Source of the DNA: a virus
Taxonomy: Duplodnaviria; Heunggongvirae; Uroviricota; Caudoviricetes
Strand: one strand, 5' to 3'
Length of the DNA stretch: 13,003 nucleotides
Virus record (IMG/VR): IMGVR_UViG_2654587996_000003
Translations under genes and position numbers: made by a program
Shown here: piece after piece, positions 3,337 through 13,003 of the stretch
Position numbering within the stretch: position 1 is the stretch's first letter
Layout of the letters: each line of letters begins with the position of its first letter
The notes under the pieces: generated by a model
What the model saw: only the letters and a program-made list of their open reading frames with translations
Database searches by the model: none
What the model was told of the DNA's origin: nothing

Positions 3337-3819
3337 TTATTTGATAAGAAGTGAAGGTTTCCCAACTTTGAGTTGAGCGCCGGGGATATTTATTCCTGCT
3401 TTTAGTTGGTGTTTGATTGCCAGTTTGTCGGCTTTAATTGTCGTTTCAAACTCAACGTATTCAGGAGGAAGGGCGCTTGAGTCGATGATTTCTACAGTTT
3501 CTGACGGTTTGCGGATTGTTACTTGGTGAATACCTGCTCGAATCTTTTTCTTGCCAACCATTTCAAGCGATGACGCTATATACGCCATAATGCTGTCAAT
3601 CTTATTTTGAATTACTGCGGCTCGTTCATTCAGTGACTTTGCCTCGTCCTTGAGGCGTTCAGCATAACCAGATTCATTTTTAATAATGGCGAGAAGTTGC
3701 TCTATTTTATCGGTAAATTCTCCTTCCATTCCTTCTATTGTGTCAGCAATCATCTCTGGCTCTAAATCTGAATCCATCAATTTTGCGTATTCATTGGCTA
3801 TTTCATATAGTTTGCTCAC
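3337..3819 (-). CDS. Gp157-like (or Mu-Gam-like) accessory protein of a RecT recombination module
   Basis: ORF-track 3337..3825, where the M is a TTG codon. A better start is GTG at 3819, preceded by GGAGG at 6-nt spacing. Coiled-coil-like N-terminus plus a beta-rich C-terminus, sitting directly downstream of recT; recalled from memory as the siphovirus Gp157 family. Start overlaps the recT remnant stop. Confidence 0.6.
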   Translation of the reverse strand: MSKLYEIANEYAKLMDSDLEPEMIADTIEGMEGEFTDKIEQLLAIIKNESGYAERLKDEAKSLNERAAVIQNKIDSIMAYIASSLEMVGKKKIRAGIHQVTIRKPSETVEIIDSSALPPEYVEFETTIKADKLAIKHQLKAGINIPGAQLKVGKPSLLIK

Positions 3820-4372
3820 TGGCAACCTCCAGTTTCGCTTTGCATTCTATGTAAATGGCTTGTACGTTCTGCTGCAATTTCATTCCAGATGTCAGGCGAT
3901 ATGCTTCTGCAAAATATCGCTTCAAATCATCCATGTTTTCTGCCTGAGCCATTTCATCACAAAGAAGTTGTGCTTTTTCCATTATTTCCTGCTGGCGTTT
4001 CCGTTCATCTTCGCGGATATCTTCCTCTGATTTGTGCGGCATAACTGGTTCCTGATGCATACCTTCATCTTCGTTAAGCAGGTGAATGGCATTATCCAGT
4101 CGCTGGGCTTTAGGCCAGTATTTGCTGGCGCGTTTAACTATGGTTTTACGCGCCATCTCTTCCCAGAATGTCTTCCACGGTCCATTCTTTGCCTTGCTCG
4201 TTGCTTCCACAGCTTTAATTTCTGCCAGACTCATTTCTTCAGTCAGGTAGTCACCATCTGCTGTTTTAACCGTGCAATAACCTCCAACAATAGAGCCTCG
4301 CTCACCAAATGCGTTGTATTTGTGGGTTGGTGCTGAATCAAGGCCATTTGATTCATAGGTGTCGTTTGAGTA
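3803..4372 (-). pseudogene. recT: RecT-family single-strand annealing recombinase, 5-prime truncated (C-terminal ~189 codons only)
   Basis: The ORF-track fragment (3803..4234) contains ..NGPWKTFWEEMARKTIVKRASKYWP.., matching the RecT motif ..NGPWVTHWEEMAKKTAIRRLFKYLP... I hand-extended the frame upstream of the Met (..[35 protein letters not shown]..) and it stays RecT-like until an in-frame stop at 4373-4375. No N-terminal ~150 aa and no start codon. Confidence 0.7.
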
Positions 4373-4488
4373 TCAAAGGCGCATGTGATCAGCTACGGCG
4401 CTGGACATACGCTGGCGGTAAGCAATGGAAAGGGCTGATGACTCGCCGCGAGATTGAGCGTGAAGTCTGTTTGTGGGGGCAACAATGA
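4366..4488 (+). pseudogene. Phage lysozyme (endolysin R, P21/DLP12-type) 3-prime remnant, last ~40 codons only
   Basis: Hand translation of the frame ending at TGA 4486-4488 gives ..[38 protein letters not shown], which I recognise as the C-terminus of P21/RrrD-type lysozymes. The stop overlaps the Rz ATG (ATGA), as in lambdoid lysis cassettes. An in-frame stop at 4357-4359 and the recT-derived sequence lie immediately upstream. Confidence 0.6.
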
Positions 4489-4928
4489 GCAGAGTAACCG
4501 CGATTATCTCCGCTCTGGTTATCTGCATCATCGTCTGCCTGTCATGGGCGGTTAATCATTACCGTGATAACGCCATCACTTACAAAAAGCAGCGTGATAA
4601 GGCCACATCCACAATCGCTGACATGCAGAAGCGTCAACGTGATTTAGCTGAACTCGATGCCAGATATACAAAGGAGCTTGCTGATGCTAACGCGACTATC
4701 GAAAGTCTTCGTGCTGATGTTTCTGCTGGTCGTAAGTGGCTGCACGTCAAAGCAGTCTGTCCGGACAAGCATAAAACCACCGCCGCCTCCGGCGTGGATG
4801 ATGCTTCCAGCCCCAGACTTACTGACACCGCTCAACGGGATTATTTCGTTCTCAGAGAGCGCATCGAAACCATAACTAACCAATTGAATGGCCTGCAAGA
4901 GTATGTGAGATCACAGTGTTCATATTAG
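4485..4928 (+). CDS. Rz: Rz i-spanin (inner-membrane spanin subunit)
   Basis: ORF-track 4473..4928 (GTG). The ATG at 4485 gives [34 protein letters not shown]..., near-identical at the N-terminus to lambda Rz; N-terminal TM helix followed by a coiled-coil region. Confidence 0.9.
4684..4875 (+). CDS. Rz1: Rz1 o-spanin lipoprotein, embedded in the +1 frame of Rz
   Basis: ORF-track 4657..4875. Internal ATG at 4684 gives [20 protein letters not shown]|TSKQSV...KPPPPPAW...TPLNGIIS: lipobox Cys at residue 20, proline-rich mature part, matching lambda Rz1 in length and motifs. Confidence 0.85.
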
Positions 4929-4966
4929 AAAAGTCTTATCATAAGATTTTTGTATATGGATGCATT

Positions 4967-5341
4967 ATGTCTCAATACGCGCGCGCCGCTTTAATTGCTT
5001 ATTATTTGGTTGCTGATAATTCAATATCCCCTCGTGATGCATGGGATGCTGCTGTCGCTGAGGTTACAGAAAGCGAATCGGCAAGAAAGAAGGGATGCCC
5101 AAGGGCAACGTTTCTCGCTCTGGCGGATAGCGGTTATCTGAAGAATGTAAAACCACATCATGGGGAGAAAAAGATCGGTAAGTTGTACCAAAGGGCAATT
5201 GAAGTTGCGAATCTGATTCTTGATTTACCCGGAATTAGCAAAGCTGAGCTAGTTGATAAAACTTGCTATAAAGACAGGCAAGGGGCTTATGACATTGCTC
5301 TAACTCTCGCTCAGTGCGGATTACTCCAGCGTCCTCAATAA
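4967..5341 (+). CDS. Hypothetical protein (~124 aa) between the lysis cassette and cos; no family recognised
   Basis: ORF-track 4916..5341 (GTG overlapping the Rz end). First ATG at 4967 gives MSQYARAALIAYYLVADNSISPRDAWDAAVAEVTESESARKKGCPRATFLALADSGYL...; start choice is uncertain. Followed 19 nt later by a hairpin plus T-tract terminator. Confidence 0.5.
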   Translation: MSQYARAALIAYYLVADNSISPRDAWDAAVAEVTESESARKKGCPRATFLALADSGYLKNVKPHHGEKKIGKLYQRAIEVANLILDLPGISKAELVDKTCYKDRQGAYDIALTLAQCGLLQRPQ

Positions 5342-5383: not shown

Positions 5384-5770
5384 CATATCTGAATCTCACC
5401 ATGCATATCATCACCTGACTGGAACGTCAGGAGAATTCGTTACGGGGATTCGATAAAGGTATTCAAGCCTGACACATTATGCGCTGTATCGTCGCCGTAT
5501 TCCCGCATTAACCATGACCGTAGCCCGACGGGGAATTCCTTCTGCGCGAGTGTGCGGGAATAATCAAAAACGATGCACACCGGGTTTTTACCGCGTTTAT
5601 GATTCGCGGGTTTGTCCCTCATGCTCGCCAGTCCTGTGCGGGGGTGGAAGAAACAGGACGTGTATTCAGGTCTGTGCGACCGTGGTCGCACGACTTTGGT
5701 CGTTCAGATATTAAATCCCATTGCGAAGTAAACCCGAATTGCTGGCGGGTCCTTTCCGGCAATCCAGAAC

Positions 5771-5965
5771 GTTACGGGGCGGAAGGCGCGCGGGTTTTCG
5801 CTATTTATGAAAATTTTCCGGTTTAAGGCGTTTCCGTTCTTCTTCGCCGTAACTTAATGTTTTTATTTAAAACACCCTCTGAAAAGAAAGGAAACGACAG
5901 GTGCTGAAAACGAGCTTTTTGGCCTCTGTCGTTTCCTTTCTCTGTTTTTGTCCGTGGAATGAACA
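5771..5965. promoter_or_regulatory. cos: Lambda-type cos site: cosN (about 5777-5788) plus cosB with terminase-binding R elements, immediately upstream of Nu1
   Basis: Sequence gttacg GGGCGGAAGGCG CGCGGGTTTTCGCTATTTATGAAAATTTTCCGGTTTAAGGCGTTTCCGTTCTTCTTCG...GAAAGGAAACGACAG...CTGTCGTTTCCTTTC matches the lambda left end and cosB as I recall them, except within the 12-nt cosN core (lambda GGGCGGCGACCT). Inverted R2/R1 CGTTTCC elements are present. Confidence 0.75.
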
Positions 5966-6700
5966 ATGGAAGTCAACAAAAAGCAGCTGGCTGACATTTT
6001 CGGCGCGAGTATCCGTACCATTCAGAACTGGCAGGAGCAGGGAATGCCCGTTCTGCGGGGTGGTGGCAAGGGTAATGAAGTGCTTTATGACTCTGCCGCC
6101 GCCATAAAATGGTATGCCGAAAGGGATGCTGAAATTGAGAACGAAAAGCTGCGCCGGGAAGTTGAAGAACTGCGGCAGGCCAGCGAGACAGATCTCCAGC
6201 CAGGGACTATTGAGTACGAACGCCATCGACTTACGCGTGCGCAGGCCGACGCACAGGAGCTGAAAAATGCCAGAGACTCCGCTGAAGTGGTGGAAACCGC
6301 ATTCTGTACTTTCGTGCTGTCGCGGATCGCAGGTGAAATTGCCAGTATTCTCGACGGGATCCCCCTGTCGGTGCAGCGGCGTTTTCCGGAACTGGAAAAC
6401 CGACATGTTGATTTCCTGAAACGGGATATCATCAAAGCCATGAACAAAGCAGCCGCGCTGGATGAACTGATATCGACTTTCTCCGGGGATTATCTCCGCG
6501 TAACTGACAACAAGGGGAAAACGCACGACGTGCTGACCGGAAGTGATGACGGTCGCCACAGCAACACGTCTCTGACGTGGGGAGCTGGCGTGCAGTTTAA
6601 CCCGACCGAATCCGTGGCCATTGATATTGCTTATGAAGGCTCCGGCAGTGGTGACTGGCGCACTGACGGTTTCATCGTGGGTGTCGGTTATAAATTCTGA
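5966..6700 (+). pseudogene. nu1: In-frame chimera: terminase small subunit Nu1 (residues 1 to ~169) fused to the C-terminal ~75 residues of outer-membrane protein Lom
   Basis: Residues 1-169 (MEVNKKQLADIFGASIRTIQNWQEQGMPVLRGGGKGNEVLYDSAA...NKAAALDELI) match lambda Nu1. From about nt 6474 the protein switches to ..TSLTWGAGVQFNPTESVAIDIAYEGSGSGDWRTDGFIVGVGYKF, the Lom/Ail-family C-terminal beta-strands. A strong terminator follows, as after lom in lambda. Confidence 0.8.
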
Positions 6701-6726: not shown

Positions 6727-6753
6727 AGCCCGCCGGTTCAGGCGGGCTTTTTT
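6727..6753 (+). terminator. Intrinsic terminator downstream of the lom remnant
   Basis: agcccgcc-ggttca-ggcgggct (8-bp GC-rich stem) followed by TTTTTT. Confidence 0.7.
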
Positions 6754-6764
6754 GTGGGGTGAAT

Positions 6765-9700
6765 ATGGCAGTAAAGATTTCAGGTGTACTGAAAGACGGC
6801 ACAGGAAAACCGGTACAGAACTGCACAATCCAGCTGAAAGCAAAACGTAACAGCACCACGGTGGTGGTGAACACGCTGGCCTCAGAAAATCCGGATGAAG
6901 CCGGGCGTTACAGCATGGACGTTGAGCACGGTCAGTACAGCGTTATTCTGTTGGTGGAGGGGTTCCCGCCATCACATGCCGGGACCATTACCGTGTATGA
7001 AGATTCCCGACCCGGTACGCTGAATGATTTTCTCGGTGCCATGACGGAGGATGATGCCCGTCCGGAGGCACTACGCCGTTTTGAACTGATGGTGGAAGAG
7101 GTGGCGCGTAACGCGTCCGCGGTGGCACAGAACACGGCAGCCGCGAAGAAGTCAGCCAGCGATGCCGGCACATCAGCCCGTGAGGCGGCAACCCATGCGA
7201 CTGATGCTGCAGGCTCAGCACGTGCAGCCAGCACATCAGCCGGGCAGGCCGCGACGTCGGCTCAGTCAGCATCTTCCAGCGCAGGAACGGCATCAACAAA
7301 GGCCAGTGAAGCGGAAAAAAGTGCTGCCGCTGCAGAGTCCTCAAAAAGCGCGGCAGCCACCAGTGCCGCTGCGGCGAAAACGTCGGAAACGAATGCGGCA
7401 GCGTCACAACAATCAGCAGCCACTTCTGCATCCGCCGCGACCATGAAGGCGTCAGAAGCTGCCACCTCAGCCCGGGATGCGGCGGCCTCAAAAGAGGCAG
7501 CGAAATCATCAGAAACGAACGCATCATCAAGCGCCAGTAGTGCCGCTTCCTCGGCAACGGCAGCAGGCAATTCCGCGAAGGCGGCAAAGACGTCCGAGAC
7601 AAACGCCAGGTCTTCTGAAACGGCAGCGGGACAGAGCGCCTCGGCTGCGGCAGGCTCAAAAACAGCGGCTGCGTCGTCTGCCAGTGCAGCGTCAACAAGT
7701 GCCGGGCAGGCCTCAGCCAGTGCCACCGCCGCCGGAAAATCGGCAGAAAGTGCCGCATCGTCTGCTTCAACAGCCACAACGAAGGCTGGCGAAGCCACTG
7801 AACAGGCCAGCGCAGCAGCGAGGTCTGCTTCCGCAGCGAAGACATCCGAGACGAACGCGAAAGCGTCGGAAACCAGCGCAGAATCCTCAAAAACGGCTGC
7901 CGCATCGTCCGCCAGTTCGGCGGCGTCATCGGCATCATCGGCGTCTGCTTCAAAAGATGAGGCGACCAGACAAGCGTCCGCAGCGAAGGGCAGCGCCACG
8001 ACAGCATCCACGAAGGCGACAGAGGCAGCTGGCAGTGCGACGGCGGCAGCACAGAGCAAAAGTACGGCGGAATCCGCGGCAACGCGCGCCGAGACAGCGG
8101 CAAAACGGGCAGAGGATATTGCATCCGCCGTGGCGCTTGAGGATGCGAGCACGACGAAAAAGGGGATAGTACAGCTCAGCAGCGCGACCAACAGCACGTC
8201 TGAAACGCTGGCGGCAACGCCAAAGGCAGTAAAAGCAGCCTATGACAATGCAGAGAAACGTCTGCAGAAAGACCAGAACGGCGCTGATATACCCGATAAG
8301 GGACGCTTCCTGAACAACATTAACGCGGTCAGTAAAACAGACTTTGCTGATAAGCGTGGTATGCGTTATGTGCGGGTTAACGCTCCTGCAGGTGCAACAT
8401 CTGGAAAATATTATCCTGTTGTTGTTATGCGTTCTGCTGGCTCAGTAAGCGAACTGGCATCAAGGGTCATTATCACCACGGCAACGCGAACCGCAGGCGA
8501 TCCGATGAATAACTGCGAGTTTAACGGATTTGTTATGCCTGGTGGCTGGACTGACAGGGGGCGTTATGCTTATGGAATGTTCTGGCAATATCAAAACAAT
8601 GAACGAGCCATCCACTCAATAATGATGAGTAATAAGGGCGATGATTTGCGCTCTGTGTTCTATGTTGATGGCGCTGCTTTCCCTGTTTTTGCGTTTATCG
8701 AAGATGGCCTGTCAATATCCGCACCTGGTGCTGATCTCGTTGTTGATGATACGACCTATAAGTTTGGGGCAACAAATCCGGCGACTGAATGTATCGCGGC
8801 GGACGTTATCCTTGATTTTAAGAGTGGGCGTGGTTTTTATGAGTCCCATTCGTTAATCGTTAACGATAACTTGTCGTGCAAAAAACTTTTTGCCACAGAC
8901 GAAATTGTAGCGCGTGGTGGTAATCAGATTCGAATGATAGGTGGGGAGTATGGGGCATTATGGCGTAATGATGGCGCTAAAACTTACCTGCTGCTTACCA
9001 ATCAAGGTGATGTTTATGGTGGATGGAATACATTAAGACCGTTTGCTATTGATAACGCAACCGGCGAACTGGTTATTGGAACCAAGCTGTCTGCAAGTCT
9101 GAACGGTAACGCATTGACAGCAACAAAGCTGCAAACGCCAAGACGGGTTTCTGGTGTTGAGTTTGATGGTTCCAAAGATATTACTTTAACCGCCGCGCAT
9201 GTGGCTGCTTTTGCCAGAAGGGCAACGGATACATATGCCGATGCGGATGGTGGCGTTCCCTGGAATGCCGAATCAGGCGCTTACAATGTCACCCGCTCTG
9301 GCGACAGCTATATTCTGGTTAACTTCTATACCGGAGTCGGAAGTTGCCGGACCCTGCAGATGAAGGCGCATTACAGAAATGGTGGTCTGTTCTACCGTTC
9401 TTCAAGAGACGGTTATGGTTTTGAGGAAGACTGGGCAGAAGTTTATACCTCGAAAAATCTTCCACCAGAAAGCTACCCAGTCGGCGCACCAATCCCGTGG
9501 CCATCAGATACCGTTCCGTCTGGTTATGCCCTGATGCAGGGGCAGACTTTTGACAAATCTGCTTACCCGAAACTTGCAGCCGCTTATCCGTCAGGCGTGA
9601 TCCCTGATATGCGTGGCTGGACGATTAAGGGCAAACCTGCCAGTGGTCGGGCCGTATTGTCTCAGGAACAGGACGGCATTAAATCGCATACCCACAGCGC

Positions 9701-10115
9701 CAGCGCATCCAGTACAGATTTGGGGACGAAAACCACATCGTCGTTTGATTACGGCACTAAATCCACGAATAACACCGGGGCACATACACACAGTGTTAGC
9801 GGTACGGCTGCTTCAGCCGGTGCACATACCCATTCGATGACATTTGTTTCAGGTGGTTCCAGTGGTGCTCCGGGAAGTGGATCACCTGATTATTCTAAAT
9901 ACAGTGTTAACACTTCTTCTGCAGGCGCTCATACGCACTCTGTATCGGGTACTGCTGCAAGCGCAGGTGCACATGCACATACTGTCGGTATTGGTGCTCA
10001 TACGCACTCTGTTGCGATTGGCTCACATGGACACACCATCACCGTTAACGCTGCTGGTAACGCGGAAAACACCGTCAAAAACATCGCATTTAACTACATT
10101 GTGAGGCTTGCATAA
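6765..10115 (+). CDS. stf: Side tail fibre protein (Stf; StfR/lambda-Stf-like), apparently full length (~1116 aa)
   Basis: ORF-track 6759..10115 (GTG); ATG at 6765 gives [37 protein letters not shown]..., the conserved Stf N-terminus. Long Ala/Ser/Thr-rich repetitive shaft; C-terminal GAHTHS-repeat receptor-binding region; stop overlaps the tfa ATG. Confidence 0.9.
7110..8150 (+). repeat. Ala/Ser/Thr-rich quasi-periodic coding repeats within the stf shaft
   Basis: Recurring peptide blocks such as [69 protein letters not shown] and [26 protein letters not shown]-rich DNA here generates long stop-free ORFs in other frames on both strands. Confidence 0.6.
9778..10045 (+). repeat. His-containing GAHTHS(V)[12 protein letters not shown] repeats in the stf C-terminal region
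   Basis: Repeated motifs [59 protein letters not shown]. The DNA copies differ at synonymous positions, so the repeat is conserved at protein level. Confidence 0.6.
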
Positions 10116-10699
10116 TGGCATTCAGAATGAGTGAACAACCACGGACCATAAAAATTTATAATCTGCTGGCCGGAACTAATGAATTTATTGGTGAAGGTGA
10201 CGCATATATTCCGCCTCATACAGGTCTGCCTGCAAACAGTACCTATATTGCACCGCCAGATATTCCGGCTGGTTTCGTGGCTGTTTTCAACAGTGATGAG
10301 GCATCGTGGCATCTCGTTGAAGATCATCGGGGTAAAACGGTTTATGACGTAGCGTCAGGGGACGCGTTATTTATTTCTGAACTCGGTCCGTTACCGGAAA
10401 ATGTTACCTGGTTATCGCCGGAAGGGGAGTTTCAGAAGTGGAACGGCACGGCCTGGGTGAAAGATGCAGAAGCAGAAAAACTGTTCCGGATCCGGGAGGC
10501 GGAAGAAACAAAAAACAGCCTGATGCAGGTAGCCAGTGAGCATATTGCGCCGCTTCAGGATGCTGCAGATCTGGAAATTGCAACGGAGGAAGAAACCTCG
10601 TTGCTGGAAGCCTGGAAGAAGTATCGGGTATTGCTGAACCGTGTTGATACATCAGTAGCACCGGATATTGAGTGGCCTGCTGTCCCTGTTATGGAGTAA
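10115..10699 (+). CDS. tfa: Tail fibre assembly protein Tfa
   Basis: 194-aa [57 protein letters not shown]..., near-identical to lambda Tfa as I recall it; start overlaps the stf stop. Confidence 0.92.
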
Positions 10700-10802: not shown

Positions 10803-11591
10803 TTAAGCATCACGTATTGCCAATCTGATTTTTGACTGATACCAATTGGGGCCTTCTGCAATTATTTCTTCCTCAACATGCATGATGGGATGCATTTCAA
10901 TTTCAGAGTTTTTGACTTTCAGATCTAGTCCATATTTTTTTGAAATTTGTAAAACTTCATTTTTGAAATCCTTATCTGCGAAAGGTGAAATCCTTATTTC
11001 TTCCAACAGATTATTAAGAGATACAGGGACTAGTTTTCCCTTTACAGGTGGAGTGTTAAAGGTATTCTCTTGAAAAATAGCTCTAAACTCTTTTTCGTAT
11101 TCGAAAGATGGTCTCTTGTTAAAGAATACATCTGATTCTGGATTGTATTGTTTTATCCAGAAATTTTTGACGTATTTTACGTGTTTTAATTGTAGTTTGT
11201 TTAGATTATTATTTTCAAGTTGGCTTTGGAGGTTTTTTTTCTTTGATTTTATGACAACGCCTTTAGCGGGGTTTTTACAATACAGCTTCCACATAGCTTC
11301 AGATTCATGTTCGTTACAATGCCAGCAACTTATATATGTCCTCTCGCTTATTTCCTTAAGTGTCTTTAAATTGAATGCCATGAAAGGATCTAAGTCCATG
11401 CCGGCACCATGAGTAGCGCATAGTTTTTCCTGTGTCTCAATGAATTTTTTATAGCCAGTATGTCCCCAAGCAAATTCACCTTCGAACGGATCTTCAAAAT
11501 TTTTTGCTGAGCAAAAAAATAAAGCATTTTGTTCGAGTAACATAGAGAATTTCTCTATGTCAAGGTATCGCCATATATACTCAGTGTGCAT
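10803..11591 (-). CDS. Hypothetical protein (262 aa), DUF2971-like N-terminal motif; AT-rich cargo gene
   Basis: ORF-track 10803..11606, where the M is a TTG codon. ATG at 11591 is preceded by AGGAG at 5-nt spacing and gives MHTEYIWRYLDIEKFSMLLEQNALFFCSAKNFEDPFEGEF..., matching the Y.Y....l..lL....l.f.....F.DP.E block I associate with DUF2971. Lys/Asn-rich and visibly much more AT-rich than flanking phage DNA. Confidence 0.6.
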   Translation of the reverse strand: MHTEYIWRYLDIEKFSMLLEQNALFFCSAKNFEDPFEGEFAWGHTGYKKFIETQEKLCATHGAGMDLDPFMAFNLKTLKEISERTYISCWHCNEHESEAMWKLYCKNPAKGVVIKSKKKNLQSQLENNNLNKLQLKHVKYVKNFWIKQYNPESDVFFNKRPSFEYEKEFRAIFQENTFNTPPVKGKLVPVSLNNLLEEIRISPFADKDFKNEVLQISKKYGLDLKVKNSEIEMHPIMHVEEEIIAEGPNWYQSKIRLAIRDA

Positions 11592-11716
11592 GATAGCTCC
11601 TTGCAATATAACTATTTCTATCTGTTCATTTGTACTTAAAAAGGATTGAGTAGCCTGAACAGTTCTATCCGTAAATATACCAGATAGAAGAGTTGTACAA
11701 TAACAAATCCTCCGTA

Positions 11717-11759
11717 TAAGAACCAGCCATAATAGTCTGGTTCTTAAGGTTTTTTTTTC
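11717..11759 (+). terminator. Strong hairpin plus T9 intrinsic terminator on the plus strand, in the intergenic region between the two minus-strand cargo genes
   Basis: taagaaccag-ccataatagt-ctggttctta (10-bp stem, 11717-11746) followed by ggTTTTTTTTT (11750-11759). The T-tract is on the plus strand only. Confidence 0.5.
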
Positions 11760-11800
11760 GAGGGGGGTAACCTACGATTCGTCCCCATATCGGCGATAAA

Positions 11801-13003
11801 TTAGGCTTGTACCAACGCTTCTGTTTCTGTGAGTGAAATTTGATAGCGTTTTACTGCCTCAGCAAAGGCGTGCGCGGCATCTGCATTTGATACCATATAT
11901 TCTTCAGTTACCCCTGTTTGAGAATGGAAAGTAATATTTCCATAAATGCAAATAGGGATTTGGTAGTTGTCTTTAAAACGACGGTCTGGTGAGCCATTCT
12001 TATTCGTTTTCGCCCATGTATAACCATCTATGCGTGAGTCACTGGGAACACCTTCTTCCTCATGGAATCTTAGATATTCTGAACTAATTTGTAATTCGCG
12101 TAAATCAATCAGAGCGAATGCTCCATCAGCTCGTGGTATGACTGCAACTCCAGGATAAAGCAAAATATCGTCTCCATTTACATTTTCAAACCTCATCGCA
12201 CGCCCTGTAAATTGAATGAAATCCGTTGAACTAAAATCAAAGGTAACTGGGTGACGATTAACAGACCGGGTTGCTAATGTTCTTTCAGCAAACTGGTCTG
12301 TAGCTTTATCTGCAGTAATATCCCATTTTTTGACACTCGATTTTAACATATCAAATGCATGGACCATCGCTGCATATGCGCGCTGTGAAGCATCACTGCT
12401 CTCGAATGTTATGGCTATTTTTGTGCTGTCTTCCCATGAAACTAGGCGAGATATCTCAGCTTGGGTTAGGGGGAGTAGTGTCTCAAGTTCTGCGATGCGT
12501 CGTTTGTAAAACCAACGGAATAGACTTGATTTGCGTCGAGCCAGCTCGCTTTTTTGTTTTGATTCTTCGGCAAGAGCCTCTTGAAGATCTGCTTTTATCT
12601 CTGCTCTTTGTTCTCGTGCTTTAGCAATCAAATCTCGTAAAGGTAAAAGGGAGGTACTTGTAAGGACTTCTACCGAAGCGCTGGATATTTCATTCATGCC
12701 AGCTACAGGCATATATATTTTAGCGTTCGATGGTGTGTTTTCTGGAGATGACCCAGACTCCAAATGAGGTTCTGTAGGGGCTGGATTTAATGGATTGGTA
12801 ACTGAGTATCCATCATCATAGGGCAAGGTAGGTGTAGTATAAGATAAGCCTGTGCCCGGTAATCCGACAGTTGCTCTAACCCCTTTTTTACCAACATTGA
12901 CAGTTGCGCCAGGCACGCCAATGCTTGCACTTATTCCACGCTTGCCAATGTTGAGTCGAACGCCAGGAAATAGAGTAAAGGTTTGTCTGAAACGAAGAGA
13001 CAT
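11801..13003 (-). CDS. Hypothetical protein (400 aa) with N-terminal DUF4236-like domain; central coiled-coil-like segment; C-terminal ~200 aa unknown
   Basis: Start codon is the last three bases of the window. N-terminus MSLRFRQTFTLFPGVRLNIGKRGISASIGVPGATVNVGKKGVRATVGLPGTGLSYTT has the repeated G-x-R/K...G glycine-rich pattern I associate with DUF4236. A charged helical stretch (REQRAEIKADLQEALAEESKQKSELARRK) follows. Composition is lower in GC than the tail-fibre genes. Confidence 0.65.
   Translation of the reverse strand: MSLRFRQTFTLFPGVRLNIGKRGISASIGVPGATVNVGKKGVRATVGLPGTGLSYTTPTLPYDDGYSVTNPLNPAPTEPHLESGSSPENTPSNAKIYMPVAGMNEISSASVEVLTSTSLLPLRDLIAKAREQRAEIKADLQEALAEESKQKSELARRKSSLFRWFYKRRIAELETLLPLTQAEISRLVSWEDSTKIAITFESSDASQRAYAAMVHAFDMLKSSVKKWDITADKATDQFAERTLATRSVNRHPVTFDFSSTDFIQFTGRAMRFENVNGDDILLYPGVAVIPRADGAFALIDLRELQISSEYLRFHEEEGVPSDSRIDGYTWAKTNKNGSPDRRFKDNYQIPICIYGNITFHSQTGVTEEYMVSNADAAHAFAEAVKRYQISLTETEALVQA

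Follow-up and report, generated by a model that had tools for sequence, protein, structure and literature searches.

Introduction

Loss of the morphogenesis block from a lambda-like prophage, with the cos–nu1 and tail-fibre ends kept, is a familiar state, and two elements of Escherichia coli K-12 exemplify it. In Qin (nohA–stfQ), a nu1 homologue is cut near its 3′ end and joined to a tail-fibre fragment, genes A to J are gone, and cos and the upstream late genes are kept; its NohA protein has 189 amino acids (aa), with a short out-of-frame tail. In DLP12 (nohD–aaaD–tfaD), a single large deletion has brought terminase genes up against the tail-fibre region, again with cos and nu1 kept, and the DLP12 nu1 is usable by lambda (PMC3945230).

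Here we describe a similar locus in a 13,003-nt stretch of tailed-phage DNA (IMG/VR record IMGVR_UViG_2654587996_000003; the whole stretch is hereafter called the window). A program-made list of open reading frames (ORFs) contains a 244-aa frame with an ATG start (5966–6700, + strand) that begins as the terminase small subunit Nu1 and ends as the outer-membrane protein Lom. The deletion at this locus differs from that of Qin in its left end, which in Qin lies 22 nt further right (GAATATA/), and in its right end, which in Qin is inside stf and not lom. It differs from that of DLP12, where nu1 is complete, the left end is inside A (lambda 1018), the right end is in tfa and there is no lom fusion. 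Judged against these elements the chimera is unremarkable in itself.

The decay of prophages is commonly viewed as a random process of deletion on which selection then acts as a filter. Deletion hotspots that depend on short homologies are known in E. coli, as in lacI deletions and lambda-bio illegitimate recombination. The deletion described here proved to have a left end that is shared, to the nucleotide, by many others.

The nu1–lom junction

The two halves of the ORF were identified by protein and profile comparisons. Lambda Nu1 matched the chimera by BLASTP at 167 of 177 positions (94%, E 2e-126), with identity ending after residue 169; over residues 1–169 alone, 166 of 169 were identical (98%). 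Residues 169–244 correspond to Lom 124–199 of the intact phage PhiR68_2 (73/76 identical, 96%, E 7e-53). Lambda Lom was a weaker match (43%, E 2e-26), because the lom of the window is a different allele. The Pfam families agree with this division: Phage_Nu1 (PF07471) covers residues 1–164 over its whole 164-position profile (E 1e-100), and Ail_Lom (PF06316) covers residues 167–244 at profile positions 122–199 of 199 (E 2e-39), so that only the last 78 positions of the Ail/Lom profile are present and not a complete barrel. These matches, together with the DNA alignments below, are far beyond chance, and the Nu1–Lom frame of the original prediction, including its assignment of the C-terminal segment to the Lom/Ail family, is real.

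To map the breakpoint, window DNA was aligned to the nu1 and lom ends of lambda, PhiR68_2 and an intact prophage of E. coli 23AR0922 (L005). The nu1 sequence was tracked up to GAACTGATA (window 6472), and the lom sequence from TCGACTTTC (6473). The switch lies between the A at 6472 and the T at 6473: the nu1 parent reads CTGATA/CCGGGG, the lom parent CGTGTG/TCGACT, and the window CTGATA/TCGACT. Since CCGGGG follows the break in the nu1 parent and CGTGTG stands before it in the lom parent, the switch is unambiguous and has no microhomology. An independent mark of the same position comes from many other E. coli genomes, in which matches to the right arm begin exactly at window 6473. The break falls after nu1 codon 169 and before lom codon 125, a codon boundary in both genes, and the joint is therefore in frame. 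The original prediction had put an in-frame breakpoint at about nt 6473, which is exact, and had suggested that microhomology be sought at the junction (GATA/TCGA, 6469–6476, + strand), where 0 nt was found.

Between the two ends, 18,660 nt are missing relative to lambda (698–19357), 18,763 nt relative to L005 and 18,753 nt relative to PhiR68_2, matching the separation of roughly 18–19 kb that had been proposed for the lambda map. The lost DNA comprises the last 39 nt of nu1, genes A, W, B, C/nu3, D, E, FI, FII, Z, U, V, G, T, H, M, L, K, I and J, and the first 124 codons of lom (62% of the gene). The earlier claim that the entire head and tail block was deleted thus holds for A through J, but stf and tfa are retained. 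In L005, the genes nu1 to J, lom, stf, tfa, and those for DUF2971 and DUF4236 proteins stand in the same order as in the window; the 3′ half of nu1 is identical and the right arm 98% identical. One contiguous block of ~18.7 kb has been lost, and its ends joined without homology.

The 244-aa ORF is therefore very probably the scar of this ~18.7-kb deletion in a decayed lambda-like prophage, and not a designed gene, with a left end that is a recurrent deletion endpoint. Apart from the existence of the ORF, nothing speaks for a natural long form of Nu1 or for an assembly artefact. Both are refuted by the 96% identity of the tail to the Lom C-terminus, by the lom-side DNA, which aligns and runs on into the lom terminator and stf, and by the presence of the junction in 13 finished genomes from different laboratories; we regard either as having practically no chance of being correct.

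A recurrent left endpoint in nu1

The left side of the junction is the GATA at nu1 nt 504–507 (lambda 694–697, window 6469–6472), at which the intact sequence would continue from GAACTGATA into CCGGGG. Nineteen distinct junctions, that of the window included, have this left end (L036, L037, L041–L053, L180–L194), and their right ends range from A to beyond tfa. Three of the 19 were found in complete genomes, eight in viral contigs and eight in metagenome contigs.

Among complete genomes, 17 further ones have nu1 and lom close together but jointed differently. Six of these 17 were mapped onto L005, and PEC1009 and TUM9812 were found to have the nu1 break of the window, joined to lom nt 165 and to the 3′ end of J, respectively. 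Viral and metagenome contigs were scanned for GAACTGATA followed by any base but C. The viral scan gave 15 matches, of which 4 were C>T polymorphisms and 11 were junctions, with 8 distinct right ends (the 3′ end of A, Z, J twice, lom, two stf alleles and the ybcY region). All 13 nu1 matches from the metagenomes were junctions, contributing 8 additional right ends (W, A, E, J, four in stf and one unidentified). Control scans of identical design, placed 21 nt upstream and 21 nt downstream, returned 0 junctions. Mirror scans, designed to find junctions in which the right side of the site survives, also returned 0, both for junctions without microhomology and when up to 4 nt were allowed. A scan for the site in one genome per species gave 2 matches, both in unrelated genes.

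In an arbitrary set of 113 nu1-bearing viral contigs from among the matches listed, 14 carried deletions whose left ends lay no more than 1.9 kb downstream of the anchor. The shared site, or a position 2 nt from it, accounted for three of these 14 left ends, and one was at the K-12 Qin position, 22 nt further on.

Different nu1 haplotypes, including one of a divergent Nu1 subfamily, are represented among the left flanks at the shared site. This makes the events independent, and a single origin of the shared left end is ruled out. Terminal microhomology of 2–4 nt (TA, ATA or GATA) was present in 12 of the 15 junctions with an identifiable right parent; the window and L048 had none. Three independent collections and the controls agree, and the hotspot is a solid observation.

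Other left endpoints were also reused. In A, position 956 of lambda (L005 1496; GGTTAT/) was joined to 7 distinct right ends, all with TAT (L038, L039, L059–L064), and 52F4 and E92 share this left end with two different right ends in lom. Lambda 880 (L035, L126) and lambda 1018 (K-12 DLP12, L179, and L090) each had two partners. The stf right end of Qin was seen with two alternative left ends, ATA sites separated by 22 nt: one in K-12 Qin (L065, nohA/stfQ) and the other, the left end of the window, in a metagenome contig (L186). Position 2719 in A (L005 coordinates) serves as the right end of one deletion and as the left end of another, in separate contigs (L194 and L109), and the partner of that left end (Z, lambda 8065/8066) was also used by L052.

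The chimeric product

Codons 1–169 of the 181 in nu1 (5966–6472, +) encode the DNA-binding and self-assembly parts of Nu1. The chimera has in common with lambda gpNu1 the full Pfam domain and the upstream cosB R sites, but the last 12 residues (170–181), which lie within the large-subunit interaction region, are absent and Lom sequence stands in their place. As there is no large-subunit gene in the element, no terminase can form. Codons 125–199 and the stop codon of lom (6473–6700, +) supply the final part of the beta-barrel. With lambda Lom the chimera has in common the C-terminal 75 residues, including VGVGYKF, and the downstream terminator; the final strand with its terminal aromatic residue (GFIVGVGYKF) is identical to that of Lom. 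The signal peptide and ~60% of the barrel are missing, and the N-terminus is that of cytoplasmic Nu1. The intrinsic terminator 3′ of lom (6727–6756, +), a hairpin at 6727–6748 followed by a T run, is identical in relatives and preserved, as had been claimed.

Upstream of the chimera, promoter signal showed no excess, with 3 sites against 3.1 expected from shuffled sequence. Most likely, as far as the sequence allows a judgement, the chimera is made in little quantity and works neither as Nu1 nor as Lom. Having no large subunit, evident promoter or export signal, it would be an inert by-product. This is in line with the original prediction, which had held function as either protein to be unlikely; what is missing is the C-terminal tail of Nu1, the signal peptide of Lom and its first 124 residues. 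Database names differ for this protein: RefSeq WP_046201413.1 is called an 'Ail/Lom family outer membrane beta-barrel protein', and the UniRef name is 'DNA packaging protein'. Clustering at 90% places it together with Lom fragments of 55–76 aa. The name Ail/Lom family is a misnomer, and the annotation deserves correction.

The reading frame across the joint was compared with other junctions at the same left end. Of 12 with a readable ORF tail, one was in frame (L051, into J); the remaining tails were out of frame and consisted of 2–47 unrelated aa. In-frame joining is thus no more frequent than the one-third expected, and the in-frame Nu1–Lom joint is a matter of chance.

It could be argued that the chimera, or any Nu1 cut at residue 169, has been kept because it is useful, acting as a cosB-binding decoy that fails to recruit the large subunit properly and so poisons the packaging of incoming lambda-like phages. 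The DNA-binding and assembly parts of Nu1 and the cosB repeats are intact, all 15 alleles cut at the site keep an open nu1(1–169) frame, and the exact 244-aa protein is widespread, occurring on 422 public contigs. Packaging interference is moreover a known principle of defence, represented by TerI of Listeria (bioRxiv 10.1101/2025.02.27.640495). However, Q and pR′ are deleted from the element and the promoter signal is no higher than chance. The tails that follow residue 169 are mutually unrelated and mostly out of frame, with nothing conserved past that residue, and selection at the protein level cannot explain a DNA breakpoint precise to a single nucleotide. Open frames are equally expected from a recent origin or from recombination with live phages, given that the DLP12 nu1 works in lambda (PMC3945230). 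A role as a decoy is therefore improbable, and we prefer to see the chimera as a deletion scar.

Formation of the junction

Several points weigh against the view of the ORF as an inert scar formed by one deletion from a recurrent endpoint. That the product is inert is something we infer, and all 15 nu1(1–169) frames with the shared left end are open, which could reflect recency, exchange with live phages, or selection. The set of complete genomes was retrieved with a junction-spanning query, which restricts the visible left ends to a stretch between about nu1 nt 270 and a point about 1.1 kb to its right; the sample of 113 viral contigs consists of matches listed only, and the pattern scans cover chosen positions. 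Parent sequences were taken from relatives and not from the true ancestor, so that microhomology counts may be off by a base. At the two main sites, predicted DNA folds were no better than those of shuffled sequence (z −1.1 and +0.5 at site 1) or just marginally better (z −2.2 and −2.1 at site 2); no stem ended at either break, and a hairpin does not account for the site. Finally, microhomology at the junction of the window is 0 nt, whereas most junctions at the site have some, and the junction of the window may have been formed differently or in two steps.

A history of at least two steps, in which an earlier deletion with the same left end but a right end further left (in J or earlier in lom, for instance) was later trimmed by a small deletion, or recombination between two resident prophages, could account for this last point. 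Several other remnants are suggestive of such events. Contig L186 and Qin form a nested pair, L186 sharing the nohA/stfQ right end and having a left end 22 nt further left, between two ATA repeats. In NT1F10, fragments of A and B are kept between nu1 and lom, a sign of successive deletions, and L048 ends 17 nt upstream of the lom breakpoint of the window. The host genomes also hold other lambdoid prophages, with 2–5 matching places per genome. Against this, no intermediate was seen in the lineage of the window, and each flank has a single intact relative as its closest match and is collinear with it. Small primary deletions from the same site do occur in otherwise complete late regions (L041, L181, L194), and these show first-step use of the site. 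A multi-step origin is accordingly a minority possibility, though a real one, and a single deletion is preferred.

Across the shared-site junctions, one end is fixed within GATA, the partners vary over >20 kb, the deletion always extends rightward, and the junction usually has short terminal microhomology. This resembles the classical short-homology hotspots in that most junctions use 2–4 nt of terminal homology. It is unlike them in that classical hotspots join two fixed repeats, whereas here one end is fixed to the nucleotide, the other varies over >20 kb, and one polarity is seen. No description of a common, polar, nucleotide-precise left endpoint was found in the searchable literature, where older papers on cryptic lambda prophages are mostly absent.

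The most parsimonious mechanism would begin with a 3′ end fixed at nt 507, on the strand that reads rightward, and produced by run-off at a template nick or by a polymerase stall. Such an end could then re-prime downstream on a few matching bases. One candidate agent is terminase itself, anchored at cosB and nicking off target. Bottom-strand nicking by terminase is reportedly rather insensitive to sequence (PMC4669245). A comparison by eye gives 6 of 8 identical positions between the 8 nt immediately right of the break (CCGGGGTT) and those right of the bottom-strand nick in cosN (CGCGGGTT), but the conserved CG by the nick is not kept and the other deletion sites do not match. The resemblance to cosN is an idea only.

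A topoisomerase, or a stalled replication fork, could also be the agent. The sequence ACT^GATACC around the putative upstream cut partly fits what we take to be the cleavage preference of gyrase. On the K-12 map, the elements at mdtA, att-lambda and DLP12 are presumably oriented so that chromosomal forks run from cos toward A. This direction fits the polarity of the deletions, but it is the usual orientation of such prophages and therefore does not discriminate.

Other explanations were considered and rejected. Insertion of a mobile gene or homing endonuclease at the site had been suggested by one unexplained right flank (L042); this flank proved to consist of a further tail-fibre allele with tfa behind it. 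No insertion sequence (IS) was seen among the right flanks. A Chi site is not convincing, as only a 6/8 match (GCTGGATG) occurs, 8 nt upstream. Selection acting by itself, to keep Nu1 1–169 and lose A, would not give single-nucleotide precision and is contradicted by the sites inside A.

It is conceivable, though we hold it only tentatively, that nu1 nt 504–507 is a site-specific, polar deletion-initiation site in lambda-like prophages, with weaker sites in A (lambda 880, 956 and 1018), and that loss of the terminase and morphogenesis block is partly deterministic.

The prophage remnant and its cos region

The cos region of the window (5745–5950, +) contains a cosQ-like sequence, GGGTCCTTTCCGG (5747–5759), cosN and the cosB repeats R3 (~5827–5846), R2 (~5884–5901) and R1 (~5926–5945), which are identical to those of lambda. 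The equivalent of the cosN cohesive end (5777–5788, +) is GGGCGGAAGGCG, a variant of the lambda end GGGCGGCGACCT, with changes at 5 of its 12 positions, all within positions 7–12, and with the flanking CG dinucleotides kept. The claim that cos is preserved was therefore correct for cosQ and for cosB R3, R2 and R1, but not for the lambda cohesive end.

The GGGCGGAAGGCG allele also occurs beside complete nu1, A, W, B and further head genes in 29 viral contigs (L006–L034), in which the A product is 99–100% identical to lambda gpA. Its place next to intact head genes identifies it as a natural allele and not a product of decay. The right half of cosN (bp 7–12) is reported to tolerate change, with 2 differing positions in N15 and phiD326 and 3 in Gifsy-1 (PMC4669245). 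None of the natural variants listed there diverges as far as the present allele, and ends of this type should fail to anneal with canonical lambda ends.

At the left end of the prophage lie a lambda-type integrase gene (1–1074) and an excisionase gene (1052–1270), both on the − strand (1–1270) and adjoining mdtA; in RM9387, whose corresponding segment is identical to the window, they are annotated as tyrosine recombinase and excisionase. A few early-left genes are kept as well. A first scar, recT′/′R, occupies 3802–4487 and consists of a 3′ remnant of recT (3802–4371, −) and the last ~117 nt of the endolysin gene R (4371–4487, +). In RM9387 both pieces are annotated as partial pseudogenes with one shared coordinate. 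The RecT Pfam match at the scar covers profile positions 133–186 only, and matches in other genomes start at window 4371. The recT′/′R joint marks a second large deletion. It removed immunity, replication, nin, Q, pR′, the holin gene S and most of R, together with the remainder of the early-left operon. As a result of the two deletions, the remnant has no late promoter, terminase large subunit, heads or tails.

Between this scar and cos, the Rz spanin gene and a DUF6979 gene (4473–5341, +) remain from the late region. To the right of the chimera, stf (1118 aa) and tfa (194 aa), the side tail fibre and assembly genes, are retained (6759–10699, +). The right arm (10803–13003, − strand) carries cargo genes that the intact relative has as well. 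The DUF2971 protein (10803–11606, −) has a PADLOC match (E 1e-20) to the candidate defence family PDC-S31; the gene for a DUF4236 protein (11801–13003, −) comes next, and the pair is found in L005 and many other prophages.

In RM9387 the element is ~16.5 kb long and lies between mdtA and the ibs/yegL region. Neither the window nor the 14 kb to each side of it in RM9387 was found to contain a gene for the terminase large subunit (A), and a search of the same flanks for displaced head or tail genes, proposed earlier as a check, likewise yielded none. An imperfect direct repeat of ~45 bp brackets the remnant (L001 8124–8168 and 24744–24788), within the ibs/sib repeat region by mdtA; it is probably an attachment-site duplication or a resident tandem repeat. 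With an integrase end beside host genes, collinearity with intact relatives save for internal gaps, and lytic functions lost, the element has the features of a cryptic lambdoid prophage.

The element was found in 13 of 5,426 complete E. coli genomes at 99.8–100% identity, and the junction is fixed in one lineage of it. Further decay is seen in one of the 13 carriers, strain L725 (NZ_CP036202.1), where an IS3-family element interrupts the remnant stf. NT1F10 and PEC1009 are independent remnants with the overall two-scar layout of the window. This layout is convergent and removes lethal functions. Remnants at three chromosomal loci (window ~4371; L035 7382–7387; L036 246) have a truncated recT or bet head-to-head with a fragment of a late or nin gene, and each of the three also carries a deletion from nu1 or A to lom.

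An element of ~16.5 kb that carries int, xis and a cos site whose cosB is intact, and whose layout recurs in similar form in two independent remnants, might also be read as a helper-dependent phage satellite, a cos-type chromosomal island whose packaging strategy includes the truncated Nu1. However, no replication module, regulator, or capsid- or terminase-redirecting gene was found among the ORFs and annotations, the small ORFs being only partly profiled. Both internal boundaries are truncated genes, that is, scars, and all parts are collinear with ordinary lambda-like prophages. The only packaging gene in the element is the truncated nu1. The satellite reading was rejected, as its replication and regulatory genes were not found, and we consider it highly improbable; the element is better described as a prophage remnant with two deletion scars.

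Implications

The chimera itself matters little, being a pseudogene-like scar that has been misnamed as an outer-membrane protein. The deletion that produced it is of wider interest, as 19 deletions start at one tetranucleotide and run in one direction. A shared, polar breakpoint of this kind suggests a specific cause at the nu1/A boundary, either a DNA lesion or an enzyme. If this is true, the step that disarms lambda-like prophages, yet leaves the cos–nu1 module, becomes directly testable. The cos–nu1 module left in such remnants is open to recombination with live phages (PMC3945230). Should nu1 nt 504–507 indeed be a deletion-initiation site, loss of the terminase and morphogenesis block would be a key step on the way to harmless remnants that keep cos and a truncated nu1.

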